Virus record (IMG/VR): IMGVR_UViG_3300025392_000640
Span: 37,214-101,213 of that record
Origin: a virus
Lineage: Duplodnaviria > Heunggongvirae > Uroviricota > Caudoviricetes
DNA: 64,000 nt
Strand: one strand, 5' to 3'
Positions within the stretch are counted from its first letter, which is position 1. Every line of letters starts with the position of its first letter. The position numbers were made by a program, and so were the translations under genes. Below are positions 8,704 through 50,337 of the stretch, in pieces. Below the pieces are notes generated by a model that was not told the DNA's origin, did not search any database, and saw only the letters and a list, made by a program, of their open reading frames with translations.

Positions 8704-8704
8704 A

Positions 8705-9369: not shown

Positions 9370-9372
9370 AAT

Positions 9373-9834: not shown

Positions 9835-9835
9835 A

Positions 9836-17688: not shown

Positions 17689-18036
17689 TTAGTTTATTTT
17701 CATTGGATATTTATTCCACTCAACCTCAACCTCATCTTTAATTCCGTTTAAAGGTCTTTGTTGTTTACATTTTTTTAATAGTTCATAGGCTTCATCAAAG
17801 TTATCAAAGTATGGTACATTTTTACTATCGTAACCATCCTCACAAGCAACTCCAGTCCAATATCTAAATCCCAATAGGTTTACTTTTTTCTGAACTATGT
17901 AACTTGAAGTCTTTAACTTACCAACATCATAATAACTTCTTTTTATTATACGATATGGTCTATCCAATTCGTTTGTTGTGTACTTAATTAATCTTTGTAT
18001 CCCTATTAATACAAATACGATTATTAATATTGTCAT
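17689..18036 (-). CDS. membrane-anchored hypothetical protein
   Basis: 115 aa with N-terminal TM. Confidence 0.45.
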   Translation of the reverse strand: MTILIIVFVLIGIQRLIKYTTNELDRPYRIIKRSYYDVGKLKTSSYIVQKKVNLLGFRYWTGVACEDGYDSKNVPYFDNFDEAYELLKKCKQQRPLNGIKDEVEVEWNKYPMKIN

Positions 18037-18046
18037 ATTTTATATT

Positions 18047-19093
18047 TTAGTTATCAATATCTTTTTTAAATGGTTTGCTCCACTTTGGTTTAATCATTTT
18101 CCAAATAGTATCTTCGTATGATTTACCATCCCACATTGAGAACAATATAGAACGATATTCATTATCTTTGATTGCTAATGCAAATTCTTTTTTATCACCA
18201 TTTGATTCACCTTTATAATATTCAAAATCAATAGAGCTTCTGAATTTAATATTTTCAAAATGTGCTTTCAATTCCAATACAGTCATTCTAACCCAATTAT
18301 CAAACTCATCCGGTACTCTATCTAAGAACTCATTTAAGTTTCCATCGGTTCTCAATAATTCCCAAATATCAGTAGTTGAAAAGTTAGTTAATATTCTATG
18401 TAAACGAACATACTCATCACCTTTGATTTTCATTCTCATTCCTCTTTTGAAACGAACAACAAATCCTTCGGCATCATTTGAAATTATTCCTTTTAAAGTT
18501 TTGAAATCAGTTACTCCATCGTATTTTTTAACTACTTCAAATCCTTCACTTTCCATATTTTCAATACTACCTTCAATTCCAATTTCATTATTGTAAACTG
18601 CTAATACAACTAATTTCTCAGCTCCACCATAATCAACAACAATTCTATTTTCAGGGTATATGATTTCAAATAAGTAAGTGTAACCTGGTATCATTCCATA
18701 CTTAGTATTTTCTTTACTCAATAACTCTTTACCTTTGATAGCTTGTTCGGATGTGAAAGAACCACGTGTTGCTATATGCCACTCATCATTATAGAAAAAG
18801 CATATACCCAAGCTACCATCCATTTTTTCAAATACTTCAAATGACTGATTTGGTATTGATTCGGGTGACAATTCCTCATAGTTAAAGAATTTTGGAAATG
18901 GTTTAGCAATTAAATTACCTTCGTTATCTAAAACTAATCCCCTACATTCTAAAGTAATCGGGTCCCACAATTTTTCGTACTGAACACCTCTGCTATAATT
19001 GTATATAGATAAAGGTAAAGTTGGGTGGTCTTGTTTAATCACCCAACCTTTCTCTACATACTGCTTAAGTAATTCAAATTTATCGTATTTCAC
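18047..19093 (-). CDS. RNA ligase (Rnl1/T4 RnlA-like nucleotidyltransferase)
   Basis: Motif I KMDGSL, motif IV EGFVVRF, motif V MKIKG; 348 aa. Confidence 0.75.
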   Translation of the reverse strand: MKYDKFELLKQYVEKGWVIKQDHPTLPLSIYNYSRGVQYEKLWDPITLECRGLVLDNEGNLIAKPFPKFFNYEELSPESIPNQSFEVFEKMDGSLGICFFYNDEWHIATRGSFTSEQAIKGKELLSKENTKYGMIPGYTYLFEIIYPENRIVVDYGGAEKLVVLAVYNNEIGIEGSIENMESEGFEVVKKYDGVTDFKTLKGIISNDAEGFVVRFKRGMRMKIKGDEYVRLHRILTNFSTTDIWELLRTDGNLNEFLDRVPDEFDNWVRMTVLELKAHFENIKFRSSIDFEYYKGESNGDKKEFALAIKDNEYRSILFSMWDGKSYEDTIWKMIKPKWSKPFKKDIDN

Positions 19094-19371
19094 TTCTTTA
19101 TTTTTTTACAATATGTTTTTAATATTTCAATTTCACCATCCATATTTTCTACATGCCAATCATCTCTACCAAGAAATTCTCTTAAGTTTTTATAAGAACT
19201 CAATCCCATTTTTCTATGTGCAGGATGCGAATCTACAAACGCACCATCTAACATATTCCAATGTACTACCGATTTCCATGCAGTACGAGTCTCAATACCA
19301 ATAAACAATTCAACGGTATCGCCGGCATATATTCTATTGCCATACGAATCGTTACATATCATTTTTCTCAT
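19090..19371 (-). CDS. hypothetical protein
   Basis: 93-aa ORF inside the ligase/kinase cassette. Confidence 0.45.
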   Translation of the reverse strand: MRKMICNDSYGNRIYAGDTVELFIGIETRTAWKSVVHWNMLDGAFVDSHPAHRKMGLSSYKNLREFLGRDDWHVENMDGEIEILKTYCKKIKK

Positions 19372-19374
19372 AAC

Positions 19375-19776
19375 TTATAATTTAATTGAGAATCGATTTT
19401 TCATTTCTTCTAACTTATCATCAGGCACTCCATGCTCATTTACACCACCATGTCTATTCTCTACAATTAAACAATAAACTGTATAACCATATGTTTTAGC
19501 TAATGTAAAATAAAAATCCAATTCCCATTCTTGCGTAAATGTATTTGATACTACAATTCTCGGAACAACTTTTTCCATCCAATTCTCAACTACATCGTGA
19601 CACCAATTGTGTGCATGTTTTAATCTACTTGGTTCAAATTTATATTCACCAGTCAATTTATCAACAAAGAACATATCAGCCTCTACATATTGAGGTCCAC
19701 TACCGGATGTTAATGATTTAGCTAATGTGCTTTTACCACTACCAGGTAAACCTCTTAATAAAAATAACTCTTTCAT
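19375..19776 (-). CDS. P-loop NTPase, polynucleotide-kinase-like
   Basis: Walker A LLRGLPGSGKSTLA; 133 aa; flanked by a phosphoesterase and an RNA ligase. Confidence 0.65.
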   Translation of the reverse strand: MKELFLLRGLPGSGKSTLAKSLTSGSGPQYVEADMFFVDKLTGEYKFEPSRLKHAHNWCHDVVENWMEKVVPRIVVSNTFTQEWELDFYFTLAKTYGYTVYCLIVENRHGGVNEHGVPDDKLEEMKNRFSIKL

Positions 19777-19782
19777 AACTTT

Positions 19783-20436
19783 TTATTTATAGTTTTCAAC
19801 AATTTCGTGATGGTCTTTAACGAACAATGATTTTACAGGTCTATTTCTCATTATATGCAACACTTCGCTTAAACCAATTGGATATAACATATTACCATCC
19901 ACACCAACATCCATCATTTTACCTTCTTGTATTCTGATGTTAGAATTGAAGTGAACATGTCCATGCAAATGGATAGCACCTTTAGCCATATTATTCCAAC
20001 TTGCTATTGGAAAGTGCATTAATACAAAGTTAGCTTCACCCATCAATGGAGTTCCAACATTCCACTTTACATTCAATTCAACATATTTGTTTACTGAACT
20101 AAAAAGTGATTGGCAATTATCTCTATTGTTTTCAATGTGATGGTCGTGATTACCAGTTACGATATGTACATTCTTACATATAATTTGGTCTCTAAACTTT
20201 TGTATTTGTTCAAAGCCACCAAACGACCAATCCCCTAAATGAATTAAGATATCATCTTGCTTTACAACTTCATTAATGTTACCAACTAAATGTGAGTTCA
20301 TATACTCTAATGATTTAAACTCCCTAATTGTTGTGGGGTTATTCCATTTTGTTGTTGAACTACAAATGTTAGCATGATTATAATGCGTATCTGATGTGAA
20401 CCATAACTTCTGTCCTTTATTTAATATCAATTTCAT
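19783..20436 (-). CDS. Calcineurin-like metallophosphoesterase (putative 2',3'-phosphatase of repair cassette)
   Basis: DTHYNH, LGDWSFGG, GNHD, HGHVH metallophosphatase motifs. Confidence 0.8.
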   Translation of the reverse strand: MKLILNKGQKLWFTSDTHYNHANICSSTTKWNNPTTIREFKSLEYMNSHLVGNINEVVKQDDILIHLGDWSFGGFEQIQKFRDQIICKNVHIVTGNHDHHIENNRDNCQSLFSSVNKYVELNVKWNVGTPLMGEANFVLMHFPIASWNNMAKGAIHLHGHVHFNSNIRIQEGKMMDVGVDGNMLYPIGLSEVLHIMRNRPVKSLFVKDHHEIVENYK

Positions 20437-21034
20437 TCTCTAAACTTTTAGGGTAATATAATAATGTTGGGTTCTTCTTTTGTAAATCAATTTCAGGAAA
20501 TTGTTCTTCAAATACTTTTGTGTTAAACTTAGTAGTAATCAAATGATAACCATTCTTTGTTGGTAACACTGCTTCAACCTTTGGACCAATAGGTTCAATC
20601 TGTCCTAATGCTCCCATAATCTTAGCCAATTCAAATCCATTGTTAGTATCAATATCAACTATCCAACGCTTCTCATTTGTTTTTAATTGTCCAACAACTG
20701 AATCGAATAAGTTCTTTTGATTATGTTGTCCATCTTTAATTCTTTGTGCTAAAGCCAATAACATATCCAATGATACATCTTTATGCGATTGCTTTTGAAT
20801 ATGAATATAAGCTCTTGCTTTGAATAACTCACACAATTGAATAATCTCATCATATCGTTTTTCCAAATACTCAATACTATCAATAGAATAAGTTTTAATA
20901 GTTCTTACTGATTGATGGTTATCCCTTTCACCTTCGGGCTGGTCCTTCTTTCTTTTAAGGACGTATAACATATAAAAGTCACCATCATCGGTAAAATTTA
21001 ATAATTTTTTAATTTGTGCAATATTGTCAATCAT
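20417..21034 (-). CDS. hypothetical protein
   Basis: 205-aa ORF. Confidence 0.5.
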   Translation of the reverse strand: MIDNIAQIKKLLNFTDDGDFYMLYVLKRKKDQPEGERDNHQSVRTIKTYSIDSIEYLEKRYDEIIQLCELFKARAYIHIQKQSHKDVSLDMLLALAQRIKDGQHNQKNLFDSVVGQLKTNEKRWIVDIDTNNGFELAKIMGALGQIEPIGPKVEAVLPTKNGYHLITTKFNTKVFEEQFPEIDLQKKNPTLLYYPKSLENEIDIK

Positions 21035-21037
21035 ACT

Positions 21038-21421
21038 CTAAGGTATTAAATGTCTAATAATAATTGTTAATGATATACAAATCCATATTGTATTGAAAGC
21101 AATCAATGTAGGTAAGTCCTTTCTCATTGATGCCCAAATTAATAACGAAGATGTAAGTAGTGTTAAGAAATGAAAATACCATAACTCAATACCAAATACT
21201 AAACCAGGAATGATAATGATTGCTTTAGCAAACCATGCAAAAAATTCAATCACATTATAATCTGTCCAATAGTTTTTCACTAAGAACATTTTATATCTTT
21301 TGAATATTTTCTTAACTCCAATTCCTAAATATAAAGCAGTTAGGAATACTGCGTATGTTATTATGTATTTCATTATATATCGTATTCTGTTTCGTAATTT
21401 CCTATTCTGGTTTTTACCCAC
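21038..21421 (-). CDS. multi-pass membrane protein (hypothetical)
   Basis: 127 aa with 3-4 hydrophobic helices. Confidence 0.45.
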   Translation of the reverse strand: MGKNQNRKLRNRIRYIMKYIITYAVFLTALYLGIGVKKIFKRYKMFLVKNYWTDYNVIEFFAWFAKAIIIIPGLVFGIELWYFHFLTLLTSSLLIWASMRKDLPTLIAFNTIWICISLTIIIRHLIP

Positions 21422-21699
21422 TCGGTAAATGAATTAATTGTTTTCATAGTTCCTTTGGCATATATTCCTTTATGTAGTGTATCAATCCAATTAGTACCTT
21501 TACCATTTCCAGCTCTTTTTATTTCATAGGTTTCATTTTCCCAATCTATAATAAATGCTAAAACATAATTGGTATCATCGGGCTGACGGAATACCCACAA
21601 TTCAGGACTTATACCATCCGTTGAAAACTTATATTCATAACCCGATGGGGTTTTGAATCTTTTATCATCTATCTTTCTAAAGTTTTCTGGCTTATTCAT
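21373..21699 (-). CDS. hypothetical protein
   Basis: 108-aa ORF. Confidence 0.45.
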   Translation of the reverse strand: MNKPENFRKIDDKRFKTPSGYEYKFSTDGISPELWVFRQPDDTNYVLAFIIDWENETYEIKRAGNGKGTNWIDTLHKGIYAKGTMKTINSFTEWVKTRIGNYETEYDI

Positions 21700-22855
21700 A
21701 CGAACTGCGGTCTATGTTTATAACAAATGGGAAACGAGGAATACCATCCGGCGTTAAATTAAAATACTTAATCGTTGCTTGCTTACCTATTAGTTTCTTT
21801 TTACTTTTAAGCATCTCAGCCGTTTCTTCCCATGTCCCTTTTACATTTGATTTGAAAGGTTTACCATCTGCTGTTTCAAATACCATATACCCAGCAGTTC
21901 CAGTTCTATTACCCTCACCCTCACAAATATCTTTAATGGTATATTCCTCATCAATGAATGATTTATGTTTCAATAGGGATTTACTTCTCTTATTCTCATA
22001 CTTAGCATCTAATCTTAGTATCTGTCCTTCGTAACCTTCATTCACATACTCACCATATAATTCCATCACCTCATCTTCGTTCTCACAAATTTGAGTTGGA
22101 ACTAATACACAATGCTTTTCAAATGATTCCAACGATTCATCAAACAATTCATCCAATTCAAAACCTCTATGATTAAATGTTTTGTTTGAGCTTGGTAAAT
22201 CATAAATCCAATACTGAATATTCTTTTGTGATTCTAATAAGTCATCTTCGGTTGGTTTAGTTTTCTTCACTAAGGATACAATACTATTGAAATCATTAGC
22301 GAACTTATCAGCATATAACTCACCATCCAATATCAAATCAGGATATGATTCAAACACATCATTCAAACTACGTCTAATATGTGGTGCTGAAATAATTGGT
22401 TTACCATTTCTACTAAACATACCGTCCTTAGTTACGATACAACGAATACCATCTAATTTAGGTTGTGAAAATATTGGGTATTCAATTTTATCTTTATAGT
22501 CTTCCCACTTTGCTGCTAACATTGGTTCAAAGTATTGTTTCTCATCAATGTTATGAATACTCTCAAAGTAGCCACTCTCTAACTTTTTAGTTCTCTTAGC
22601 GATTGCTTCTTTAAGAGCCTGTTCGTTATCAGTAGTACCATTTGCTTTACCACTATTCTTACCGTATACTACAGTCCATGCATTTGTAGTAATCTGGCCA
22701 CCAACTTGTCCACTATGAGTTCGGTATCTATTATCCGATACTTCGATTGTCCACTCTTGGGTTGCCCCTGTCTTTGTTTTTTTGTAAATTGTTTCTAACT
22801 TCATATCTTTATTTTTTAACATTTTTCTAATAATTCTAAACATTCGTTCATCCAT
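21692..22855 (-). CDS. ATP-dependent DNA ligase
   Basis: Motif I KLDGIRC, motif III ILDGELY, motif IV EGQILR, motif V LLKHK. Confidence 0.8.
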   Translation of the reverse strand: MDERMFRIIRKMLKNKDMKLETIYKKTKTGATQEWTIEVSDNRYRTHSGQVGGQITTNAWTVVYGKNSGKANGTTDNEQALKEAIAKRTKKLESGYFESIHNIDEKQYFEPMLAAKWEDYKDKIEYPIFSQPKLDGIRCIVTKDGMFSRNGKPIISAPHIRRSLNDVFESYPDLILDGELYADKFANDFNSIVSLVKKTKPTEDDLLESQKNIQYWIYDLPSSNKTFNHRGFELDELFDESLESFEKHCVLVPTQICENEDEVMELYGEYVNEGYEGQILRLDAKYENKRSKSLLKHKSFIDEEYTIKDICEGEGNRTGTAGYMVFETADGKPFKSNVKGTWEETAEMLKSKKKLIGKQATIKYFNLTPDGIPRFPFVINIDRSSYE

Positions 22856-25269: not shown

Positions 25270-25734
25270 TTATTTTTTGTATCGTTTTTCTAATCTATCG
25301 TATGCTATTGCAGTTTCGTATGTGTGTGGTATATTAACAGCAGAACAACTCATAGGTTTACCACAATTTTTGTAGTAGTTATTAATATAACCCATCATAT
25401 TAGCTGCTCCAATTGGATTAGCTGAATGTACATAGACTTGTGGTAACTCAATACCCTTATCAATACTTTCATTAACCAACCACTTAGCGCAATCATACCC
25501 AGTTTTTTCACTAATGTTATCATAATCAATTTTATAATTATCTTTAACATTATTAAAATACTCACGCATAGCAGTATCACCTAAATCGTGGTCTAATGAA
25601 ATCACTTCGTAATTTTCTAAACCATTCAATCGGATATGCGATACAAATTCATCATAGTTTTTAACTAACTTCCACCTATCATCATTTGGTATTCTCACAT
25701 CATCCAAATACAACCACAATTTTTTGTTCTCCAT
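25270..25734 (-). CDS. hypothetical protein
   Basis: 154-aa ORF. Confidence 0.5.
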   Translation of the reverse strand: MENKKLWLYLDDVRIPNDDRWKLVKNYDEFVSHIRLNGLENYEVISLDHDLGDTAMREYFNNVKDNYKIDYDNISEKTGYDCAKWLVNESIDKGIELPQVYVHSANPIGAANMMGYINNYYKNCGKPMSCSAVNIPHTYETAIAYDRLEKRYKK

Positions 25735-26525
25735 TATATAAAATTTAATTCTCTAGTTTCAAAATCATAATCAAAGGTTATTGGATTATTAACAGCCTCA
25801 TATCTTAAGTTACAGCTACTACCATTAAAGGTATAGATATCACCCCATTCATCTTTATAAGGTATAGTTCCGTATCCGTATCCTTCGTGGATATGGCCTC
25901 CAAAATGTAAGTGAGGTTTTACTTCATGCAATCTATGATACAAATCTTGACAACCTACATTTTGATTTGTATTTTGTGCTCTATCATTGTAACCATAAAT
26001 CGGAGTATGTGTGATAACGATATCAGTATCCATTGGTATTTTATTCCAACATTCTGCTATATCATGTCCTCTATCTTTATTGTAAGCCCAACCACGACCG
26101 AATGATGGTGAATAGGGCGAACCCCATATCTTTATGTTATCAAACTCAATAGTACTATTCTCTAAATAAAATGTATTGTTATCCAATCCACTTAACATAT
26201 CAGTCAACCATTGTGGTCTACCTTCTGCTAAATCTAATGGGTCATACATCCTACCGTCAAAGTGTGCCAACTTATCAGCTAACATTGTTTCACTTTGAAA
26301 ACTAATGTCGTGATTTCCAGCTATGAATATTTTGTATTGATAATCCTGCTTACTGAACCATTTTATAAATTGCTCTATCTCATGCTTCCTACCCAAAGAT
26401 GAAATATCGCCACTATGGATTAATATATCTCCACCTGGCAATTTACCATTAAGCTGATTGTGTTTATTGTGGGTATCACTTATACCCGTAATCCTAAATT
26501 TCATAACCTTTATTAATTCATTCAC
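25734..26525 (-). CDS. Calcineurin-like metallophosphoesterase
   Basis: GISDTHNKH, IHSGDIS, AGNHD, GGHIHEGYG motifs. Confidence 0.8.
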   Translation of the reverse strand: MNELIKVMKFRITGISDTHNKHNQLNGKLPGGDILIHSGDISSLGRKHEIEQFIKWFSKQDYQYKIFIAGNHDISFQSETMLADKLAHFDGRMYDPLDLAEGRPQWLTDMLSGLDNNTFYLENSTIEFDNIKIWGSPYSPSFGRGWAYNKDRGHDIAECWNKIPMDTDIVITHTPIYGYNDRAQNTNQNVGCQDLYHRLHEVKPHLHFGGHIHEGYGYGTIPYKDEWGDIYTFNGSSCNLRYEAVNNPITFDYDFETRELNFI

Positions 26526-43113: not shown

Positions 43114-43602
43114 CTATAACTTAACTAAATGGTCAGCCGCATAAGTTGCGATTGGACCTAATGATTTATATCTTACTTCATATCCCATACCTTCTACCAA
43201 ACCAACTGCTTGCCTAAACACTTCATTTGATTTATACTTTGGGTCTGGATTAATATCAATATCAATCCATCTTGGTTTTGGAATACCAGCTTCTTTTAAA
43301 AATTCTGCGGTTTCAATAGCGTACCATATTTCATTTAATAAACGAACTGAACGAGTGTATTCTCTTTCGGTTTTCCATCTTCTATATAAAACATGCGCAC
43401 CTTTCCCCTTACGATACAAAGCAACTACTACCGCATAGGTTGTTTTATCCGAATGATTTTGCGAATCACATCCAATTAGGATTTCAACATTGTGGTTTTC
43501 ATTTTCTTCCATGTACTTTTGGACATAAGGAACTAATTCTAATTCCTCTTTGTCATACAATCTTTTGTATTTCATAATAAGGGTTTTGTTGTTGTACCCC
43601 AA
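43114..43602 (-). CDS. YkuK/DUF458-like RNase H-fold protein
   Basis: ILIGCDSQNHSDKTTYAVVVALYRKGKGAH resembles the YkuK family core. Confidence 0.45.
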   Translation of the reverse strand: MGYNNKTLIMKYKRLYDKEELELVPYVQKYMEENENHNVEILIGCDSQNHSDKTTYAVVVALYRKGKGAHVLYRRWKTEREYTRSVRLLNEIWYAIETAEFLKEAGIPKPRWIDIDINPDPKYKSNEVFRQAVGLVEGMGYEVRYKSLGPIATYAADHLVKL

Positions 43603-43675
43603 AAGAGACTCGAACTCTTACATCTTACGATACCGGCTTCTAAGACCGGTGTGGCTACCATTACACCATCGGGGC
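43595..43675 (-). tRNA. tRNA-Leu (anticodon UAG)
   Basis: Hand-folded: acceptor GCCCCGA/TTGGGGT, anticodon loop CTTAGAA, long variable arm, T-loop GTTCGAGTC. Confidence 0.7.
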
Positions 43676-43690
43676 TATTTAAAAGAACTA

Positions 43691-43770
43691 CTGCTGTTAG
43701 AGCAGGATTCGAACCATGCAAAGGGAGATTCGGAAAGTAACACAATGCTTGCAAGCTGGTGGTCAACCCC
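43691..43770 (-). ncRNA. tRNA-like element with canonical GGTTCGAATCC T-loop motif but no foldable cloverleaf (pseudo-tRNA?)
   Basis: ggattcgaacc at 43706-43716; 3' hairpin CTGCTCTAACAGCAG plus U-rich tail; no acceptor pairing found. Confidence 0.3.
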
Positions 43771-43844
43771 ATATTACTTTTCTATTTCTTAATCCCTGCC
43801 CACGAGACGAGTGGGTGTGTTTGCCGAAGTCATAACTGAGATGA

Positions 43845-44069
43845 CTAATTTTCACCATCTAACAATTTATTATCTTTATTAATGTTAAATGTTGCATTAT
43901 GAAAGATTCTGATTTGGTCACTACGATAGTGCCTAACTATACCACCTTCACACAATACAACACACCAAATATCATTTTCCAACATCCCACTATCGGTAAC
44001 ATAAATAGCGTAACCATCTTTGTTACCCTCAACTACAACGGGTATTGGCTTTTGAAATTCTAACATCAT
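43845..44069 (-). CDS. hypothetical protein embedded in tRNA region
   Basis: 74-aa ORF. Confidence 0.4.
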   Translation of the reverse strand: MMLEFQKPIPVVVEGNKDGYAIYVTDSGMLENDIWCVVLCEGGIVRHYRSDQIRIFHNATFNINKDNKLLDGEN

Positions 44070-44082
44070 AATAGATAATTTG

Positions 44083-44170
44083 CGGAGAGTCAGGGATTCG
44101 AACCCCAGATACCGTTTCCAGTATGACGGTTTTCAAGACCGTTCCATTCAACCACTCTGGCAACTCTCCG
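44083..44170 (-). tRNA. tRNA-Ser (UGA)
   Basis: Acceptor GGAGAGT/ACTCTCC, anticodon loop CTTGAAA, long variable arm, T-loop GGTTCGAATCC. Confidence 0.8.
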
Positions 44171-44178
44171 TTTTTATA

Positions 44179-44436
44179 CTAATAGATATTATCTTCCTTA
44201 GAAATCCTAAAATCTATACTACTTTGCCTTCTTCTAGCTTCTTCTGCTTCTTTAACCCATCTAATCCAAGTTAAAGCAACATCAATAGGTGCTAAAATCC
44301 AAGCCATAACAATAACCATAATAGTATCTAACTCTGGTGATTGTGAAGTTACACTACCATCATATCTTTTATTCAAATTTTTAAATAGCTGATAAAAACA
44401 ATAGATAACACAAATAATGTAATAACCAATAAACAT
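44179..44436 (-). CDS. small membrane protein
   Basis: Track ORF 44179..44460 trimmed to the internal Met so the start lies downstream of the promoter. Confidence 0.4.
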   Translation of the reverse strand: MFIGYYIICVIYCFYQLFKNLNKRYDGSVTSQSPELDTIMVIVMAWILAPIDVALTWIRWVKEAEEARRRQSSIDFRISKEDNIY

Positions 44437-44456
44437 AACTTTCTTTTTTAATTTTA

Positions 44457-44490
44457 TCAAAGATACGATAATATTTTCACATTACCAAAT
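44457..44490 (-). promoter_or_regulatory. Bacteroidetes-type promoter
   Basis: caaagatacgataatattttcacattaccaaat. Confidence 0.55.
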
Positions 44491-44497
44491 CTTTTTG

Positions 44498-44568
44498 TTC
44501 CCCCTCAAGGATTCGAACCTCAACTATATGGACCAAAACCACATGTACTACCGTTATACTAAAGGGGA
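44498..44568 (-). tRNA. tRNA-Gln (UUG)
   Basis: U1-A72 acceptor TCCCCTT/AGGGGGA, anticodon loop TTTTGGT. Confidence 0.8.
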
Positions 44569-44709
44569 GTGTCTCAAGCATTCTACTTCCCGCAGTGCGA
44601 AATTGTATCTTACTTAGCCCATCGCTAGCGGTATGGGTACTTGAGTGTGTGAATGAAAAACATCTATTCTTCTTGCGGCCTGTTCACAATGGCCCACTTA
44701 TCTTTATCG

Positions 44710-44782
44710 AGCAGCGAAAGAGATTCGAACTCTCTCGTCCAGCTTGGAAGGCTGGCGTGCTACCATTGAACACCACCGCTGC
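44710..44782 (-). tRNA. tRNA-Gly (UCC)
   Basis: Acceptor GCAGCGG/TCGCTGC, anticodon loop CTTCCAA. Confidence 0.8.
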
Positions 44783-44890
44783 TTTTGTGTAGGTTTTTCT
44801 TTCACATTTAGCCCAAACACCAGTGAATCAATGTTTGGATTTTGAACCGAGTGCCCAATAAGGGGCTTTACAACCTACAAACTCTGTCAG

Positions 44891-44963
44891 AGCGGAAGAC
44901 CAGGCTCGAACTGGCCACCTATGCCTTGGCAAGGCATCGCTCTACCGAATGAGCTACTTCCGC
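44891..44963 (-). tRNA. tRNA-Gly (GCC)
   Basis: Acceptor GCGGAAG/CTTCCGC, anticodon loop TTGCCAA. Confidence 0.85.
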
Positions 44964-44971
44964 AATTTTTG

Positions 44972-45045
44972 TGGGAAAGACTGGGTTCGAACCAGTGACC
45001 TCAAAATTATGAGTTTTTTGCTCTAACCAACTGAGCTACATTCCC
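44972..45045 (-). tRNA. tRNA with CAU anticodon (elongator Met or Ile2/lysidine)
   Basis: Acceptor GGGAATG/CTTTCCC with one U-U mismatch, anticodon loop CTCATAA, all-AU anticodon stem. Confidence 0.7.
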
Positions 45046-45162
45046 AATAAAGATTATATTCATTCTGCCGTTAGTAGTCTATTTACCATTAACTACCACG
45101 TGTATCTAGTCAGACTTCTTTGGGGTTGGTATCGTTCCCTTCATATAATCTTTAAATAAGGT

Positions 45163-45252
45163 GCCGGTGGTGAGATTGGTTACTCACACGAAGTCCCTTT
45201 CGGATGAATCGCCCTTTCTAGTTCGGATGCGTCTAAATTCCGCCACACCGGC
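45163..45252 (-). ncRNA. tRNA-like structured element (perfect 7-bp terminal helix GCCGGTG/CACCGGC, non-canonical T-loop TAACCAAT)
   Basis: Hand fold: terminal helix, D-like hairpin GCG-GAATTTAGA-CGC, hairpin CGAAAGGGACTTCG, T-like stem GTGAG/CTCAC; no standard anticodon arm. Confidence 0.3.
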
Positions 45253-45269
45253 ATATATCTTTTAATCTT

Positions 45270-45569
45270 TTAATCTTTTAATTCATTAATAAGACTATCT
45301 ATCATATCATCACCTAAAGAAATTTGATGTAGGTTTTTTATTTTTAAATAGTTTTCTAAATACATTGATGCGGTTACTAACTTGTCACCTTTTTGTATCT
45401 CTATTTTAATAATACCGCTTGTGTTTGTTGTTTCGGATGGTGTGATTTTTTTAGTCAAACTTTCAATTTTTTCGGCTATCGTATCCAAATCATTTTTATC
45501 TATTTCAACAGTATTAACATCATCTCCATATCCATAATCTATGAGTATGTTTTTAATTTTTTCTTTCAT
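45270..45569 (-). CDS. hypothetical protein
   Basis: Track ORF 45270..45608 overlaps tRNA-Ala; start moved to the internal Met (MKEKIKN). Confidence 0.4.
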   Translation of the reverse strand: MKEKIKNILIDYGYGDDVNTVEIDKNDLDTIAEKIESLTKKITPSETTNTSGIIKIEIQKGDKLVTASMYLENYLKIKNLHQISLGDDMIDSLINELKD

Positions 45570-45584
45570 AACTTTTTGTTTAGT

Positions 45585-45657
45585 GGAGAATGAGGGAGTC
45601 GAACCCACGACCTTCTGAATGCAAATCAGACGCTCTAGCCAACTGAGCTAATTCCCC
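45585..45657 (-). tRNA. tRNA-Ala (UGC)
   Basis: Acceptor GGGGAAT (G3-U70 wobble present), anticodon loop TTTGCAT. Confidence 0.8.
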
Positions 45658-45667
45658 ATATTTATCG

Positions 45668-45753
45668 TGCCTCAAGTGGGAGTCGAACCCACACGAACTT
45701 TTCGGTTCACAGGATTTTAAGTCCTGCGTGGCTACCAATTACACCATCGAGGC
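45668..45753 (-). tRNA. tRNA-Leu (UAA)
   Basis: Acceptor GCCTCGA/TTGAGGC, anticodon loop CTTAAAA, long variable arm. Confidence 0.8.
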
Positions 45754-45759
45754 AGTTTG

Positions 45760-45831
45760 TAGTCCGGCGTGGAATCGAACCACGAACCAAATCTTAGAAG
45801 GATTTTGTTATATCCATTTAACTACCAGACC
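45760..45831 (-). tRNA. tRNA-Arg (UCU)
   Basis: Anticodon loop CTTCTAA, T-arm CGTGG-TTCGATT-CCACG. Confidence 0.8.
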
Positions 45832-46027
45832 AAAAAATAGATGAGAGGGTTATTACGTCTAATAACTCCAAAGTTTCTACCGGCCGTTTATGGAATATGC
45901 GCACTGACCATAAACTAAGCTTTCGTCTGCATCTCATCTCAAAAAACATCAAATGGGATTCCAACCCATACTTTCGGGCAATTACTCCCGATGTGCTAAC
46001 GTCAGTTACACTATTGATATTTTTATG

Positions 46028-46101
46028 CGGAACGTAGGGAACTCGAATCCCTGACCTCTACAGTGACAGTGTAGCATTCTAACCAACTGAACTAACGCTC
46101 C
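46028..46101 (-). tRNA. tRNA-Asp (GUC)
   Basis: Acceptor GGAGCGT/ACGTTCC, anticodon loop CTGTCAC. Confidence 0.8.
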
Positions 46102-46176
46102 GTAATTACTAATTCATCTTTATTTGCACCACCACGTCATGCGTAGGTTGACATATACCTCAATGAATTAGTTCTG

Positions 46177-46250
46177 AGCCTAAGGTGAGATTCGAACTCA
46201 CGACTCCGAAATTACAAATTTCGTACTCTGGCCAACTGAGTTACTCAGGC
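46177..46250 (-). tRNA. tRNA-Thr (UGU)
   Basis: Acceptor GCCTGAG/CTTAGGC, anticodon loop TTTGTAA. Confidence 0.8.
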
Positions 46251-46258
46251 TTATATTG

Positions 46259-46330
46259 TAGTCCCGAGCGGAATCGAACCGCCCTTTTCAGGATGAAAAC
46301 CTAACGTCCTAACCGATAGACGACGGGACC
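46259..46330 (-). tRNA. tRNA-Glu (UUC)
   Basis: Anticodon loop TTTTCAT, T-arm GGCGG-TTCGATT-CCGCT. Confidence 0.8.
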
Positions 46331-46350
46331 ATATTATTTAAAAGAACATT

Positions 46351-46384
46351 ACAAATATACGATAATTTTTTCAAACTACCAAAT
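46351..46384 (-). promoter_or_regulatory. Bacteroidetes-type promoter immediately upstream of tRNA-Glu and the downstream tRNA block
   Basis: acaaatatacgataattttttcaaactaccaaat. Confidence 0.55.
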
Positions 46385-46393
46385 TTGTTTTTG

Positions 46394-46482
46394 CGGAGAG
46401 CGGAGTATTCGAAACTCGCCCAACTTAATGGGTTCTCGTTTAGCAAACGAGCGGGGAACACCTTTGCCCTCCTTCACTCTCC
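46394..46482 (-). tRNA. tRNA-Ser (GCU)
   Basis: Acceptor GGAGAGT/GCTCTCC, anticodon loop TTGCTAA, long variable arm. Confidence 0.75.
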
Positions 46483-46484
46483 AA

Positions 46485-46559
46485 TGGTGTGACCGAAGAG
46501 AATCGAACTCTTACATAAAGTGCCACAAACTTTCGCCCTACCATTAGGCTACGGCCACC
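46485..46559 (-). tRNA. tRNA-His (GUG) with encoded G-1 and 3' CCA
   Basis: GGTGGCCG... 5' end (extra G-1), anticodon loop TTGTGGC, 3' ...CGGTCACACCA. Confidence 0.8.
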
Positions 46560-46565
46560 ATGTTG

Positions 46566-46640
46566 TAGCGTGAACAAGATTCGAACTTGTGTCTGAGCCT
46601 TATGAGAGCTCCGTAAGAAAACCAACTCTACCATCACGCT
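46566..46640 (-). tRNA. tRNA with CAU anticodon (Met/Ile2), second copy
   Basis: A1-U72 acceptor AGCGTGA/TCACGCT, anticodon loop CTCATAA. Confidence 0.75.
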
Positions 46641-46707
46641 ATTTGTGGAATTGAACCACCTTCCCAGCTTAATGCCGGGCGATACATCCAGTATCCTTCA
46701 CCGGTTG
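46641..46707 (-). ncRNA. Truncated tRNA-like fragment (T-arm plus anticodon-like hairpin, no 3' acceptor strand)
   Basis: GGTGGTTCAATTCCAC T-arm abuts the 5' end of the adjacent tRNA; hairpin CCCGG-CATTAAG-CTGGG. Confidence 0.3.
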
Positions 46708-46778
46708 AGGCGTGTATTGGAATCGAACCAATCTAAAAGGATTTGCAGTCCTCCACCTAGCCACTCGGACAACTCGCC
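46708..46778 (-). tRNA. tRNA-Cys (GCA)
   Basis: Acceptor GGCGAGT (one A-A mismatch), anticodon arm GAGGA-CTGCAAA-TCCTT, T-arm ATTGG-TTCGATT-CCAAT; overall similar to bacterial tRNA-Cys. Confidence 0.65.
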
Positions 46779-47321
46779 TTATCGGTTTAGTTTATTAATA
46801 CATTCATCTATCTTATCTCTCAATCTTCCGCCACGTCCAAAATCACCATCAACTTGTACATGCCTCCACATTGGAATACGATGTTTCATCCATTTGAACT
46901 CTGCACTCAATTTCATATCATCAATTGCAATCCAGTTACTAATCTTATTATCCTTAACCCATTTTACAATCTGATGTGCTCTCTCAAACTCTAAGGATGG
47001 ATTACTCATCTTATTCCAAATTCCCAGCTTTCTACTACTCATATGTGTTGTGATATCAATCAATGGAGCATGAATACCAAACTCAATAAATGTATCACTC
47101 ATTTGCCTAAGAGTAAAGTGCAACTTCCAATCTGATGATAATACTAATTCTGCATTAGTCTTGTCACAAATTTCTTGCAATGCTTCACAATCCTCTTTTA
47201 CTAATGGGTAAGGTATTGTAAACTCATTCATAGTATTTTCGTTTATCTTCACTTTACCATCATCCCATGTTGCCCAAGCTAATGGCCCATCAACATCAAT
47301 AAAAATAATTTTCTTTCTCAT
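46779..47321 (-). CDS. HAD-superfamily phosphatase-like protein (embedded in tRNA cluster)
   Basis: N-terminal IIFIDVDGPL (HAD motif I) and WIAIDD (motif IV-like). Confidence 0.55.
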   Translation of the reverse strand: MRKKIIFIDVDGPLAWATWDDGKVKINENTMNEFTIPYPLVKEDCEALQEICDKTNAELVLSSDWKLHFTLRQMSDTFIEFGIHAPLIDITTHMSSRKLGIWNKMSNPSLEFERAHQIVKWVKDNKISNWIAIDDMKLSAEFKWMKHRIPMWRHVQVDGDFGRGGRLRDKIDECINKLNR

Positions 47322-47347
47322 AACTTTAATTTTTAATTTTTTAATTG

Positions 47348-47421
47348 TACTCTCTAAGAGACTCGAACTCCTAACCCCTTCGTCCGTAGCGAAGTGCTCT
47401 AATCCATTGAGCTAAGAGAGC
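47348..47421 (-). tRNA. tRNA-Arg (ACG)
   Basis: Anticodon arm CTTCG-CTACGGA-CGAAG. Confidence 0.8.
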
Positions 47422-47427
47422 TATTTG

Positions 47428-47496
47428 CACGCAGTGAAGGAATCGAACCCTCTCGTAAAGATTTGGAGTCTTTTTAGCTACCATAGCCTACCACGT
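47428..47496 (-). tRNA. tRNA-Trp (CCA)
   Basis: A1-U72 acceptor ACGTGGT, anticodon arm AAAGA-CTCCAAA-TCTTT; short D region. Confidence 0.65.
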
Positions 47497-47503
47497 ATGT
47501 TTG

Positions 47504-47577
47504 TTGGAATAGCGAGATTCGAACTTGCCACCTTCTCGGTATCAGCGAGATGCTCTAACCAAATGAGCTATATTCCA
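47504..47577 (-). tRNA. tRNA-Ile (GAU)
   Basis: Acceptor TGGAATA/TATTCCA, anticodon loop CTGATAC. Confidence 0.75.
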
Positions 47578-47587
47578 ATTTTTAAAG

Positions 47588-47662
47588 TAGGGTAAAGAGG
47601 ACTCGAACCTCCACGATGTCTTGCTCCCAAAGCAAGCGGCCTAGCCATTGGCCCATTACCCT
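47588..47662 (-). tRNA. tRNA-Pro (UGG)
   Basis: Acceptor AGGGTAA/TTACCCT, anticodon loop TTTGGGA. Confidence 0.8.
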
Positions 47663-47668
47663 ATATTG

Positions 47669-47742
47669 TTCCCCCGGTAGGATTCGAACCTACAACCCAC
47701 CGGGTAAAAGCCGGTTACTCTAGCCAATTGAGCTACAAGGGA
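47669..47742 (-). tRNA. tRNA-Lys (UUU)
   Basis: Anticodon arm ACCGG-CTTTTAC-CCGGT, T-arm GTAGG-TTCGAAT-CCTAC. Confidence 0.8.
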
Positions 47743-47792
47743 TTCTTTTGTCACTCTTGTCACTTTCCATAATCATTGTTTTTAATTGTTAG

Positions 47793-47864
47793 TGGTAATG
47801 AGTGGAATCGAACCACTGCTACTAAGTCTTCAGCCTAGCGCTCTACCAACTGAGCTACATCACC
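47793..47864 (-). tRNA. tRNA-Phe (GAA)
   Basis: Acceptor GGTGATG/CATTACC, anticodon loop CTGAAGA. Confidence 0.85.
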
Positions 47865-47928
47865 TTGCCTTTTTTAGCGTTTTTGAATAGAACGCAAGGA
47901 CAGTACGACCTGAAAACTATTAGGGTTG

Positions 47929-48009
47929 TGGGAGTAAGAAGACTCGAACTTCTGAAGCCGATGGCGTTTGATTTACAGTCAAATGTGATTGCCGCTACAC
48001 GATACTCCC
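47929..48009 (-). tRNA. tRNA-Tyr (GUA)
   Basis: Acceptor GGGAGTA/TACTCCC, anticodon loop CTGTAAA, long variable arm. Confidence 0.8.
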
Positions 48010-48014
48010 AATTG

Positions 48015-48086
48015 TAGAAGTGGAGAATTATGATATCCCGTCCTCTTGGATGTAAGCCAAGCGCTCTCCCTCTGAGCTACACTTCT
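48015..48086 (-). tRNA. tRNA-Val (UAC) with non-canonical T-loop
   Basis: Perfect acceptor AGAAGTG/CACTTCT, D-arm GCTC-AGAGGGA-GAGC, anticodon loop CTTACAT; T-loop ATCATAA lacks TTC. Confidence 0.6.
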
Positions 48087-48114
48087 ATTTTCCACAATGT
48101 CAAAGAACCAAATG

Positions 48115-48187
48115 CGTTAGTGATAGGATTCGAACCTATGGCCACTTGATTAACAGTCAAGAGCTCTACCAGCTGAGCTACACCAAC
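48115..48187 (-). tRNA. tRNA-Asn (GUU)
   Basis: Acceptor GTTGGTG/CACTAAC, anticodon loop CTGTTAA. Confidence 0.85.
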
Positions 48188-48199
48188 ATTTATTTACAA

Positions 48200-48247
48200 A
48201 CATCCCAAAAACAAAAAACCTCTAACTTTTTTATCGGTTAGAGGTCT
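48200..48247 (-). terminator. Rho-independent terminator (minus strand) just upstream of the tRNA cluster
   Basis: Hairpin cctctaac/gttagagg; minus strand has stem followed by TTTTTTGTTTTTGGG. Confidence 0.55.
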
Positions 48248-48261
48248 TTCAATATTGTTAT

Positions 48262-48430
48262 AAAATTTTACACTTTATCCCCAATTATCATCCTCTAACT
48301 TCGTACTAATATAATCCACTTTGCCTAAATTTGCTTGTGCCGGATTACTTATCGTACTAAACATACGAATCCCACACCATTCATTTCTCAATGTAGGTTG
48401 CGAACAATTTGTATGTAGTGTTAAAGTTTT
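48262..48430 (-). CDS. small hypothetical protein (below track threshold)
   Basis: ~55-codon minus ORF MKTLTLHTNCSQPTLRNEW... ending before the terminator. Confidence 0.3.
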
Positions 48431-48574
48431 CATCTTTGTTATGTTAATAAGTATATAATAATTTTATTTTCAGTTTTTTTAATTCTTATAAGCCTAAATC
48501 GGGAAGTATATTGCTATACTCCCCTCTCTAAGTTGTAATAAAAATTAAGATATGAAACGAACAACCTTTCAGTT

Positions 48575-48665
48575 GTTAGTAGAGCGGGACCAATGATTCG
48601 AACATCATCCTCTCACCTGGTCGGTAAGTGTGCTACCATTACACCAATTCCGCTTATGTGGAAAG
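48575..48665 (-). ncRNA. tRNA-like/pseudo-tRNA (T-arm TGATG-TTCGAAT-CATTG, acceptor with mismatch, aberrant anticodon loop)
   Basis: Hand fold; a degenerate partial copy of its 5' half (gtgtgctac.attacac) recurs at 48915-48950. Confidence 0.3.
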
Positions 48666-49902
48666 TTTTTCGAGTTGGAGAGGAACTTTCCGAGCGCTGC
48701 CGAAACCCCATAATACATTTTCGTATTGATTACTTTGCTTTAAGCCTTTTACAGCTTTGGCGAAATCCAATCTAAACCACATTAGGCTTCCTACTTTTAA
48801 GTTTCTAGTTTAAGTCCCAAACCAACTTGCTCTCACTAATGCGAACACAATGTTAAACAGACTACGATGAGCGGTTAAAGGTTCTGCCCCCCTCCTCTCC
48901 ACTGGAATGTGAAGTGTGCTACTATTACACTAAAACCGCTTATAAATGGATGAGAATACTCCAATGGGTGATTCAGCTTTAGAAGGATTATTGAGTTCCC
49001 TTCGTTTCCACTTCCTTTTGAGAAGTACCAAATCAATGCAGGTCATTATAGATAACCACTCTTAAAGTTGTAACTTACTCACCTATTACTCCCCTTATTC
49101 AATCCTGCCGAACTGATTCAACCTTGCGGGTCTATAAGCTTTTCGTAGATATCACATCCGCCTTGCGAGCGTTTGTGGCTGGGAACAACTCCCAACTATG
49201 TATGCACCTTTCGGTTACAACTGATGAACACTTTTGCTTTATGTTTATTTATAGTTTTTTACGCCGAAGTAAAAATAAAGTTTTGGTTCGTAGATTGATT
49301 CAGGTAGCGGTTCATCACCAGCTCTGTCCCCTTTTGAAGAACAGAATACTATACTACCCAATGCGTTATCTCAACGCCATACTTCAAGTCATCTTCATCA
49401 ATAGGGATTGGTGTCCCACATTGAAGGATAGTAACGGCACCACCCGTACACAGTCTTACCTTACGTCTTTTCAGATAGCTTGGTGTTAAGACCACTTTGG
49501 TATTGAATCACGCAATAGTAAAAAGGGATTAGCTTTTTATATCTTACATAAATCCTATGAGTTATTCTTATTGCTGTTCCCAGCTCAACTAAGGAATCTA
49601 CAGTTCCCTAGTCATCCCAACTCGTCAATGATAGTGTTACCCCCACCTACAAAGCCAGAATGATATCTCACTTGCCTACTCAAGCTCATAAGTCCACAGA
49701 CCTATAAACCGCAGAATGTTTAACCAAACATCCCACTTTATCCTACTTTCGTAGTTTATTTAACGACCATAGGCGGCCGTTTGTTCACTATATAACACAA
49801 GGTTATTATGTGAAGTATTTTTAATAATTTAAAGAACTAATTTGATTCTCAATTTTGTTTTCTGGTCAAACCAATCAACTACTTTATTTTTGAATCTTAG
49901 TA

Positions 49903-50337
49903 AAGATACGAAGAATATTTTATTCCACCAAATCTTTTTTTATTTTTGTTGAAACATTTTCGGCTGTGTTTACTTACACCATTTATACTTCCTACTTCTG
50001 AATCAACTTAGTAAAGATACGATAAATTTTTCAATCTACCAAATCTTTTTTTAACTTATTGATAATCAACAAGTTAGTTAAGATATCCGGCTTTCTTCCC
50101 TATTGGATAGGTCACTCAATCGGTTTTATTATTGATGGCTTCAACCTTAACTTTGTTAAAGATACGATAAATATTTCAATCTACCAAATCTTTTTTTGTT
50201 GCGGGGGATGGATTCGAACCACCGACCTAAAGGTTATGAGCCTTCCGAGCTACCTCTGCTCTACCCCACGATATATAAAGAACTTTTATCTCTTTTGATT
50301 TAATCAAAGATACGAATAAATTCCGAATCTACCAAAT
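49903..50337 (-). promoter_or_regulatory. Array of four tandem promoter copies (49903-49933, 50013-50044, 50157-50189, 50305-50337) interleaved with palindromic elements and a tRNA
   Basis: taaagatacgaagaat...ccaccaaat; taaagatacgataaat...ctaccaaat (twice); caaagatacgaataaa...ctaccaaat. Confidence 0.55.
50199..50270 (-). tRNA. Initiator-type tRNA-fMet (CAU)
   Basis: C1-A72 mismatch; CGTGGGGTAGAGCAG...CTCATAA...GGTCGGTGGTTCGAATCCATCCCCCGCAA closely parallels bacterial tRNA-fMet. Confidence 0.75.

Follow-up and report, generated by a model that had tools for sequence, protein, structure and literature searches.

A predicted three-protein RNA-repair cassette and a neighboring AEP-like protein family in an uncultured freshwater phage

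The locus and its gene block

The window analyzed here, a stretch of 64,000 nucleotides from the Caudoviricetes record IMGVR_UViG_3300025392_000640 of IMG/VR, is AT-rich (G+C about 31%) and codes uniformly on the (-) strand. Between its positions 18,047 and 22,855 lie eight open reading frames (ORFs), among them an Rnl1-type RNA ligase, a stand-alone P-loop kinase and a calcineurin-type metallophosphoesterase, which we consider likely to constitute a heal-and-seal pathway for broken RNA (Table 1). An original prediction from this sequence had described these three genes as an adjacent, co-oriented cassette with characteristic motifs; all eight ORFs were confirmed at the listed coordinates on the (-) strand, and every quoted motif was recovered in the ligase, kinase and phosphoesterase translations. 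As the distances between neighboring genes range only from -20 (an overlap) to +10 nucleotides, a single co-oriented block is plausible, and its genes are probably expressed together.

The probable host is a member of the Bacteroidota, as indicated by the closest phages, which infect Flavobacterium, Cellulophaga and Tenacibaculum, and by the lack of a Shine-Dalgarno-like motif upstream of any of nine consecutive genes (17689-22855, - strand). A scan for promoters and terminators was uninformative: it returned fewer sigma-70-like sites than shuffled sequences did, and that consensus is of the wrong type for such a host. In a search at the DNA level the phosphoesterase gene gave the sole match, at 66% to Flavobacterium phage immuto.

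Table 1. Genes of the block and other RNA-related features of the window
Feature	Position	Strand	Basis
Rnl1-family ATP-dependent RNA ligase, 348 aa, GTG start	18047..19093	-	Pfam, PHROG, motifs
Small YopX-like beta-barrel protein (putative), 93 aa, lineage-specific passenger	19090..19371	-	
Stand-alone P-loop kinase, polynucleotide 5'-kinase clade, 133 aa	19375..19776	-	AAA_33, PHROG, family profile
Calcineurin-type metallophosphoesterase, 217 aa; predicted 2',3'-cyclic-phosphate/3'-phosphate end healer	19783..20436	-	Metallophos, phrog_547
Uncharacterized AEP (primase-polymerase)-like protein, 205 aa, phrog_14949	20417..21034	-	
Hydrophobic small ORF; 127 aa here, called at 111-127 aa in related contigs	21038..21421	-	
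Small ORF, 108 aa	21373..21699	-	
ATP-dependent DNA ligase, 387-aa ORF (called elsewhere at 370-383 aa)	21692..22855	-	
cREC (cyclic-phosphate-processing receiver) protein, 154 aa; putative accessory end healer	25270..25734	-	PF20274, 5.7e-23
Second metallophosphoesterase, 263 aa, abutting cREC	25734..26525	-	Metallophos 1.3e-10, phrog_1649
SAK ('Swiss-army-knife') HAD phosphatase of RNA-repair systems	46779..47321	-	PF18143 HAD_SAK_2, 9.6e-20
Array of 26 tRNA genes, with GOLLD RNA inside	43594..50270	-	ARAGORN and Rfam

The three core enzymes

The RNA ligase recovered the Pfam family RNA_lig_T4_1 (PF09511; 60.1 bits against a gathering score of 28.3, E = 3.8e-16), the T4 gp63-type family phrog_562 over ligase residues 13-346 (2e-72) and the T4 Rnl1 structures 2c5u and 5tt6 over residues 30-242 (about 1e-15), all of which agree with the Rnl1-type identity proposed for it earlier. 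It carries the motifs KMDGSL at position 90, EGFVV at 209 and MKIKG at 221, and its elements K90-MDGSL, F142-E143, FE..P.NRIV, E209-G210 and K222-I-K224 pair with the nucleotidyltransferase motifs of T4 Rnl1 in the same two structures. The Rnl1-specific stretches ECRG (49-52) and KFFN (68-71) align with T4 Arg54, Lys75 and Phe77, which are essential residues of T4 Rnl1. By these sequence criteria the protein is placed in the Rnl1 family, with Lys90 as the predicted AMP-accepting lysine. Its closest relatives in sequenced phages are those of Streptomyces phages (35-38% identity) and of Tenacibaculum phage pT24 (33%), and both in pT24 and in Daubenski, a Streptomyces phage, the ligase gene has a gene annotated as Pnk 0.8-1.5 kb away.

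The kinase, which bears its P-loop GLPGSGKST at residue 9, matched Pfam AAA_33 (49 bits, cut-off 27; 9.9e-13), phrog_2071 ('ATPase'; 1.6e-36) and phrog_505, 'polynucleotide kinase' (2e-9). An exhaustive search yielded 8326 homologs, most of which stand alone and are about 130 aa long. As a single sequence the kinase showed P-loop similarities only to structures in the PDB; a family profile built from 51 homologs matched, over about 105-120 residues, T4 Pnk (1ly1, 8.5e-7; 1ltq, 1.6e-6), Capnocytophaga Pnkp1 (4xrp, 2.1e-5), Clostridium thermocellum CthPnk (4gp7, 3.6e-4) and the seryl-tRNA(Sec) kinase PSTK, while its adenylate-kinase-type matches were confined to the P-loop. Asp34, which aligns with the general base Asp35 of T4 Pnk, is invariant in the 51 family members, and a conserved segment beyond the region aligned to T4 Pnk, E106-N-R108-H, may be the source of the lid arginine; in T4 Pnk the 5' end or phosphate is bound by Arg38 and Arg126.

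Multi-domain homologs of the kinase (41-52% identity) include fusions to an Rnl1-type ligase (P0318, P0334, P0339), to an HD phosphohydrolase (P0274, P0286; an arrangement known from Runella HD-Pnk) and to a CNPase 2',3'-cyclic phosphodiesterase (P0285). Three two-domain homologs (P0356, P0297, P0250) were considered as phosphoesterase fusions and rejected, having given no BLASTP match to the window phosphoesterase; some of the extra domains are HD-like. The profile matches to polynucleotide- and tRNA-kinase structures, together with the fusions to RNA-repair domains, exclude a deoxynucleoside monophosphate kinase. Such a kinase, paired with a DNA-specific ligase, had been named in the original prediction as the outcome that would speak for ordinary nucleotide metabolism, and neither emerged from the profiles and fusions. 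We assign the kinase to the polynucleotide 5'-kinase clade and predict that it phosphorylates RNA with a 5'-OH.

The phosphoesterase matched Pfam Metallophos (26 bits, cut-off 21.5; 1.5e-5) and phrog_547 (4.8e-41), with the motifs SDTHYNH at position 15, LGDWSF at 67, GNHDH at 95 and HGHVH at 158. In an alignment of the window protein with three orthologs from other phages, D16/H18, G68-D69, G95-N-H-D98, H141 and G159-H-x-H162 are invariant, and by sequence the protein is an intact calcineurin-like metallophosphoesterase that has kept its two-metal motifs. The sole structural relative detected by sequence is Aquifex aq_1665 (1xm7; 3e-4 with the sequence alone and 2.3e-15 with a profile). Because the phosphatase domains of CthPnkp and Pnkp1 were not matched by the phosphoesterase profile in the PDB at E <= 0.1, and because its motif II, LGDWSFGG, lacks the DRG of the lambda-type GDxxDRG, it shares a superfamily and not a family with the Pnkp phosphatase. 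The closest cultured ortholog (59% identity) is encoded at 5931-6692 of Flavobacterium phage immuto, beside a run of tRNA genes. Gene context suggests that the enzyme would act at RNA 3' ends.

Recurrence of the cassette in other phages

An identical gene block is present in the independent metagenome contigs L005-L007. We scanned 80 IMG/VR loci anchored on kinase homologs (54-67% identity) with custom hidden Markov models (HMMs); many of these loci are incomplete, and hence the counts are lower bounds. The phosphoesterase occurs within 3 kb of the kinase in at least 46 of the 80, most often directly upstream, so that the commonest order, phosphoesterase-kinase, is the one seen in the window. 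An RNA ligase is found within the same distance in at least 37 loci (Rnl1 in 20, Rnl2-type in 20), cREC in at least eight, a CCA-adding enzyme in at least four and a DNA ligase in at least one.

The association extends to cultured phages of unrelated lineages: the triad occurs in the Escherichia coli Vequintavirus LL12, the Vibrio phage Brizo (Demerecviridae) and the Pseudomonas Otagovirus PN09, the phosphoesterase adjoining the kinase in LL12 and Brizo. Furthermore, the fused family phrog_8238, with 737 positions, is matched successively, if modestly, by the kinase (6e-15), the phosphoesterase (4e-6) and the ligase (4e-4), in that order. The repetition of the block in independent contigs and the wide spread of the phosphoesterase-kinase-RNA ligase neighborhood argue that the arrangement is not due to chance. 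The linkage of the three enzymes, as originally proposed, is therefore conserved across phages and has in some cases gone as far as fusion into one protein.

The phosphoesterase-kinase pair is the stable core of these loci, and the ligase partner is interchangeable between Rnl1 and Rnl2-type enzymes. In the 217-kb contig L019 the block is the same except that an Rnl2-type ligase (PF09414 and the PHA02142 OB domain) replaces Rnl1 and the 93-aa ORF is missing. The chemistry is kept across such non-orthologous swaps, of which the Rnl2-type ligase of L019 is one example and the pairing of the closest ligase relatives with a canonical Pnk is another. The phosphoesterase clade is a good target for biochemistry, since its pairing with the kinase is conserved while the ligase is exchanged.

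The remaining ORFs of the block

Two ORFs of unknown function had been noted inside the cassette. Both are present, and the smaller, the 93-aa ORF between ligase and kinase, proved to be peripheral: it has no family match, its homologs form only 30 clusters with one weak match in a cultured phage, no RNA-repair neighbors were found around its homologs elsewhere, and a homolog is absent from all 80 kinase-anchored loci. It is best treated as a passenger, putatively YopX-like. The larger is the AEP-like protein discussed below. The two small ORFs that precede the latter gave no match in Pfam, PHROG and NCBIfam scans, and both are kept in position in L005-L008.

The DNA ligase at the head of the block matched DNA_ligase_A_M (1.7e-16) and DNA_ligase_OB_2 (1.1e-8) in Pfam, phrog_114 (1.6e-78) and the NCBIfam model PRK09125 (7e-35), and has the motifs KLDG, DGEL, EGQIL and LLKHK. 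It had been counted alongside the RNA-repair cassette, an association that its rarity near the kinase (one of 80 loci) does not bear out; it is best read as an ordinary replicative-type enzyme that is a neighbor and not a member of the RNA pathway.

A family of AEP-like proteins often encoded near repair genes

The larger unknown ORF, which overlaps the start of the phosphoesterase gene, gave no sequence match in Pfam, NCBIfam or the PDB, even with an 80-sequence profile, and none of the 80 family members matched any Pfam family. In hhalign its comparison with the Prim-Pol alignment returned a probability of 0.3%, and its BFVD matches were uncharacterized viral proteins only. Two metagenomic searches recovered 6653 and 1816 homologs; among sequenced phages, homologs are restricted to phages of Bacteroidota or from gut samples, namely Cellulophaga phi17:2, Tenacibaculum pT24, the Prevotella Lak phages and crAss-like phages.

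An AlphaFold model computed from a diverse alignment (pLDDT 89, pTM 0.82) points to an AEP (primase-polymerase)-like fold. In this model the conserved W124-IVD127-I-D129 lies where strand 124-128 ends and G162-Y-H164 where strand 163-167 begins, while strand 183-185 holds position 183, at which 75 of 80 sequences have D or E. This set fits the AEP motifs I (DxD), II (sGxH) and III (acidic) on successive strands, the motifs having been equated by inspection. The suggestion that the ORF might be a Hen1-like partner is not upheld by the model, and a Hen1-like protein was rejected for both unknown ORFs, the predicted folds being AEP-like in one and YopX-like in the other and a methyltransferase fold in neither. 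A distant methyltransferase near the tRNA array (41919-42542) gave no PDB match.

The predicted fold invites comparison with RlaP, the CCA-adding enzyme, Thg1 and the AEP domain of LigD, with which the protein has in common a predicted nucleotidyltransferase-type fold encoded beside RNA ligases and polynucleotide kinases; such a contextual position beside RNA ligases and polynucleotide kinases has been described for RlaP and Thg1 (PMC7824862, PMC2904730). It differs from these in that the modeled fold is AEP-like and not of the Pol-beta or Thg1 type, with no sequence similarity to the Pfam AEP families or to Prim-Pol.

We scanned 158 IMG/VR loci from three clades of this family, which share only about 30-40% identity, with HMMs for repair genes, the neighbors being verified by Pfam. 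A core RNA-repair gene is located within 3 kb of the homolog in 34 of 80 loci of the window-like clade, in 5 of 15 of the Cellulophaga-phage-like clade and in 34 of 63 of the crAss-like and other clade, and in deduplicated loci all 74 such repair genes are on the same strand as the homolog. The gene orders are varied (Table 2).

Table 2. Gene orders around homologs of the AEP-like protein (E, homolog of the 20417-21034 product; PE, phosphoesterase)
Gene order	Locus
E-PE-kinase-ORF-Rnl1	window
E-PE-kinase-Rnl2-type ligase	L019
Rnl1-E-PE-kinase	L068, L070
kinase-E-Rnl1	L057, L093
Rnl2-type ligase-E-Pnkp	L105
Rnl2-type ligase-E-kinase-PE	L112
Rnl2-type ligase-Pnkp-E	L020
PE-CCA enzyme-E	L049
CCA enzyme-E	L059
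E-CCA enzyme-PARP-like-DNA ligase	phi17:2
E immediately beside a DNA ligase	L075, L076, L114

There is about an even chance that this adjacency is positional only, i.e. that the homologs and the repair genes both occupy a variable, insertion-prone region and the homologs encode a primase-like replication factor or another accessory factor unrelated to RNA repair. In many loci (e.g. L009 and L018) no repair gene was found near the homolog; HNH and NUMOD homing endonucleases are frequent neighbors, as are DNA polymerase A (PolA) and ThyX; and the cassettes of proteobacterial phages have the kinase-phosphoesterase-ligase triad wholly without a homolog. Likewise, in 70 PolA-anchored crAss-like loci (of L260-L339) from closely related gut phages the homolog is present in 25 and a small AAA_33 kinase in 39, the two being weakly correlated (odds ratio 2.2, p = 0.14), which marks the region downstream of PolA in these phages as a hot spot for accessory genes. 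Two lines of evidence speak against mere position. Repair genes are encountered on both sides of the homolog, in several shuffled orders and across the three divergent clades. Moreover, of the 36 deduplicated loci that extend 9 kb or more to both sides, 22 have their nearest repair gene no more than 2 kb away, as against 10.5 ± 2.6 in circular shifts within the locus, and none of 5000 shifts reached 22, a figure which is not a true probability because the loci are related. As for the primase part of this explanation, the presence of the gene in only 25 of 70 related loci is that of an accessory gene and argues against an essential replicative primase in crAss-like phages.

A function of the AEP-like protein as a repair nucleotidyltransferase is no more than a tentative proposal, the remaining probability being shared by a role in replication akin to that of a primase and some other role. 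It is conceivable, if doubtful, that the family represents a new group of nucleotidyltransferases with an AEP fold whose task in phages of Bacteroidota is RNA repair. Such an enzyme might rebuild nucleotides lost at the break, as by the wobble-base excision of RloC-type nucleases or by 3' trimming, before healing and sealing. Were this the case, a fourth, primase-derived activity would join RlaP, the CCA-adding enzymes and Thg1 in phage tRNA repair, and a repair polymerase of this kind would account for the ability of phages to withstand nucleases that take nucleotides away instead of merely cutting. The AEP-like protein is the more interesting lead from this locus: its metagenomic relatives number in the thousands, it is unannotated, its model is confident and it recurs in the midst of RNA-repair genes.

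Two further observations concern the surroundings of this family. In Cellulophaga phi17:2 (6001-10404) there come, after the homolog, a tRNA nucleotidyltransferase of the CCA-adding type, a WGR-PARP-like protein and then an ATP-dependent DNA ligase, which looks like a variant end-repair neighborhood. Band-7 proteins are encoded within 3 kb of homologs in 17 related loci.

A predicted heal-and-seal pathway and its alternatives

We regard it as likely that the phosphoesterase, kinase and ligase act together as a three-protein pathway for mending broken RNA. Metal-independent ribonucleases of host defense, i.e. anticodon nucleases and similar enzymes, produce ends bearing a 2',3'-cyclic phosphate and a 5'-OH. 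The metallophosphoesterase would generate a 3'-OH by opening and removing the cyclic phosphate or by removing a 3' phosphate; the kinase, as its clade suggests, would use an NTP to phosphorylate the 5'-OH, Asp34 serving as the general base; and the ligase, adenylylated on Lys90 as its motifs imply, would activate the resulting 5'-phosphate and seal the break. The cut RNAs are probably tRNAs. From the gene linkage, the domain fusions and the T4 paradigm we infer both such a substrate and a purpose directed against anticodon nucleases, and the cassette would thereby complement the 26 tRNAs of the phage, its cREC-second phosphoesterase pair and its SAK-HAD phosphatase. As tRNA-cleaving defenses are now known to be widespread, with phage countermeasures deciding the outcome, it is of interest that an uncultured, environmentally abundant freshwater phage lineage combines a full tRNA set, a predicted heal-and-seal pathway and spare end-processing enzymes.

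Several observations weigh against this interpretation. The ligase scores 82.4 bits against NCBIfam equivalog TIGR02308, for which the cut-off is 242.25, and its pairwise alignment to T4 Rnl1 ends at residue 242, so that the C-terminal domain responsible for tRNA specificity is not covered; profile alignments do reach the C-terminus (33-367 of 373 positions in TIGR02308 and 19-372 of 377 in phrog_562). The missed cut-off and a C-terminal third aligned at the profile level only make it a divergent Rnl1 member, and from so divergent a sequence tRNA specificity cannot be predicted. In the kinase the position of T4 Pnk Arg38 is taken by Phe37, and polynucleotide kinases also work on DNA ends. The phosphoesterase clade has no characterized member, the nearest structure, aq_1665, being a 'hypothetical protein', and in phage immuto, which encodes the closest cultured ortholog, no homolog of the window-type kinase or of Rnl1 was found.

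The last two points bear on an alternative that we consider improbable, in which kinase and ligase alone repair RNA, the phosphoesterase degrades cyclic (oligo)nucleotide signals or removes protein phosphates, and other genes of the window, either cREC with the second phosphoesterase or the SAK-HAD phosphatase, heal the 3' ends. Anti-signaling roles have been proposed for some calcineurin-like enzymes of phages (PMC7824862), the phosphoesterase clade is of neither the Pnkp nor the lambda type, three further genes of the window are candidates for processing 3' ends, and immuto has the ortholog without kinase or ligase. Nevertheless, the commonest arrangement places the phosphoesterase directly beside the kinase, the two being within 3 kb in 46 of the 80 loci and adjoining in unrelated cultured phages; the phosphoesterase also matches the middle of the fused family phrog_8238, and even the immuto ortholog abuts tRNA genes.

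It is more unlikely still that the stretch from DNA ligase to RNA ligase is a module for DNA-end repair or replication comparable to PNKP or LigD, with the AEP-like protein filling in or priming, the phosphoesterase and kinase cleaning the ends and the ligases sealing: T4-type polynucleotide kinases use DNA ends as well as RNA, in three loci (L075, L076, L114) an ATP-dependent DNA ligase directly adjoins the AEP-like protein, which in the window is about 660 nucleotides from one, the protein neighbors DNA polymerase A and ThyX in crAss-like phages, and homing endonucleases are frequent beside it, but the ligases linked to the kinase are of RNA-ligase families (Rnl1 or PF09414/PHA02142) in 37 of 80 loci as opposed to a DNA ligase in one, the kinase is fused to RNA ligase, HD and CNPase domains, and the remaining neighbors (CCA-adding enzyme, cREC, SAK-HAD phosphatase) are tRNA enzymes.

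Comparison with known systems

Phage neighborhoods combining a T4-like tRNA ligase, a nucleotide kinase, cREC and, in some cases, a phosphoesterase of calcineurin-like type have been predicted to function in RNA repair (Iyer et al. 2022, PMC9503650), and calcineurin-like phosphatases have been noted in the RNA repair of jumbo phages (Iyer et al. 2021, PMC7824862). The cREC proteins, reported to be linked to RNA ligases, are predicted to resolve 2',3'-cyclic phosphates (PMC7824862, PMC9503650). The cassette described here is a further example of this widespread neighborhood and not of the Pnkp/Hen1 system. With the type represented by Escherichia phage V5 and Proteus phage Mydo it shares a T4-like tRNA ligase, a small kinase, a calcineurin-like phosphoesterase and a cREC elsewhere in the genome, and in Vequintavirus LL12 the same kinase and phosphoesterase families adjoin an Rnl1-like ligase. 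It differs from that type in that its cREC is 5 kb away and paired with a second phosphoesterase, and in that the scanned parts of the window showed neither a sirtuin nor a MazG gene; the block also holds the AEP-like protein and the YopX-like ORF, both of which are missing from the proteobacterial phages.

The original prediction had likened the cassette to T4 Pnk/Rnl1 or to bacterial Pnkp/Hen1. The first comparison largely stands, in that the ligase is of the Rnl1 family, the kinase of the Pnk clade and the phosphoesterase intact. The T4 Pnkp and Rnl1 pathway, which acts against the anticodon nuclease PrrC, has in common with it the three chemical steps, the ligase family and the kinase clade. 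However, the T4 kinase is fused to a DxDxT (HAD) phosphatase and its gene is unlinked to that of the ligase, whereas the window has a free-standing kinase and, as its phosphatase, a binuclear metallophosphoesterase; in Streptomyces and Tenacibaculum phages, close relatives of the ligase are still accompanied by a T4-type Pnk.

The second comparison does not hold: the phosphoesterase is of another clade (GDWSFGG as against GDxxDRG), the ligase is Rnl1 and not the Pnkp ligase, and no Hen1 methyltransferase was found at the cassette, as judged from the folds of both unknown ORFs. What is shared with Pnkp/Hen1 and Pnkp1-Rnl-Hen1, as in Clostridium thermocellum and Capnocytophaga gingivalis (PMC4411300), is the combination of a kinase, a metallophosphoesterase and an ATP-dependent ligase, the ligase being a separate polypeptide in Pnkp1-Rnl-Hen1 as it is in the window. 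In the window all three are separate genes, with an extra ORF between kinase and ligase. They differ likewise from the fused proteins of phrog_8238 in being separate genes and in their order, which is phosphoesterase, kinase, (ORF), ligase.

Other RNA-related and auxiliary genes of the window

Where the cREC gene and that of the second phosphoesterase meet, a stop and a start share position 25734. The pair, which recurs in L006 and L007, looks like a second candidate module for 2',3'-cyclic phosphates. The SAK-HAD phosphatase has an N-terminal FIDVDGP and is flanked by tRNA-Cys and tRNA-Arg; in many related contigs (e.g. L021, L031, L046) its family is encoded 3-6 kb from homologs of the AEP-like protein.

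The set of 26 tRNAs claimed for the phage is recovered as 25 ARAGORN calls (43.6-50.3 kb) and one call made by Rfam only (48015-48086); the two finders also differ at tRNA-Gly(acc) (48582-48653), which is called by ARAGORN only and is not listed by Rfam at its gathering score. The array encloses a full-length GOLLD RNA (48947-49361, - strand; RF02032, 304.8 bits against a gathering score of 150), a large structured RNA that fits a lake-derived phage, and it is adjoined by an RNase H-like protein and two methyltransferases. Given the cREC-phosphoesterase pair, the SAK-HAD phosphatase, the RNase H-like protein, the methyltransferases, the tRNA array and GOLLD, the phage is heavily invested in RNA maintenance, in keeping with the strong outlay on translation first surmised from its tRNAs and cassette.

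Beyond these the window has unusual auxiliary content in the form of two tryptophan-halogenase-like FAD enzymes (PF04820; 11686-13173 and 39003-40514, - strand; 2e-113 and 2.5e-94). It also encodes, all on the (-) strand, a SET-domain protein (38569-39003), an S-adenosylmethionine lyase-like protein (50432-51133), a ferredoxin-dependent bilin reductase (52628-53254) and an SPFH/Band-7 protein (60980-61831).

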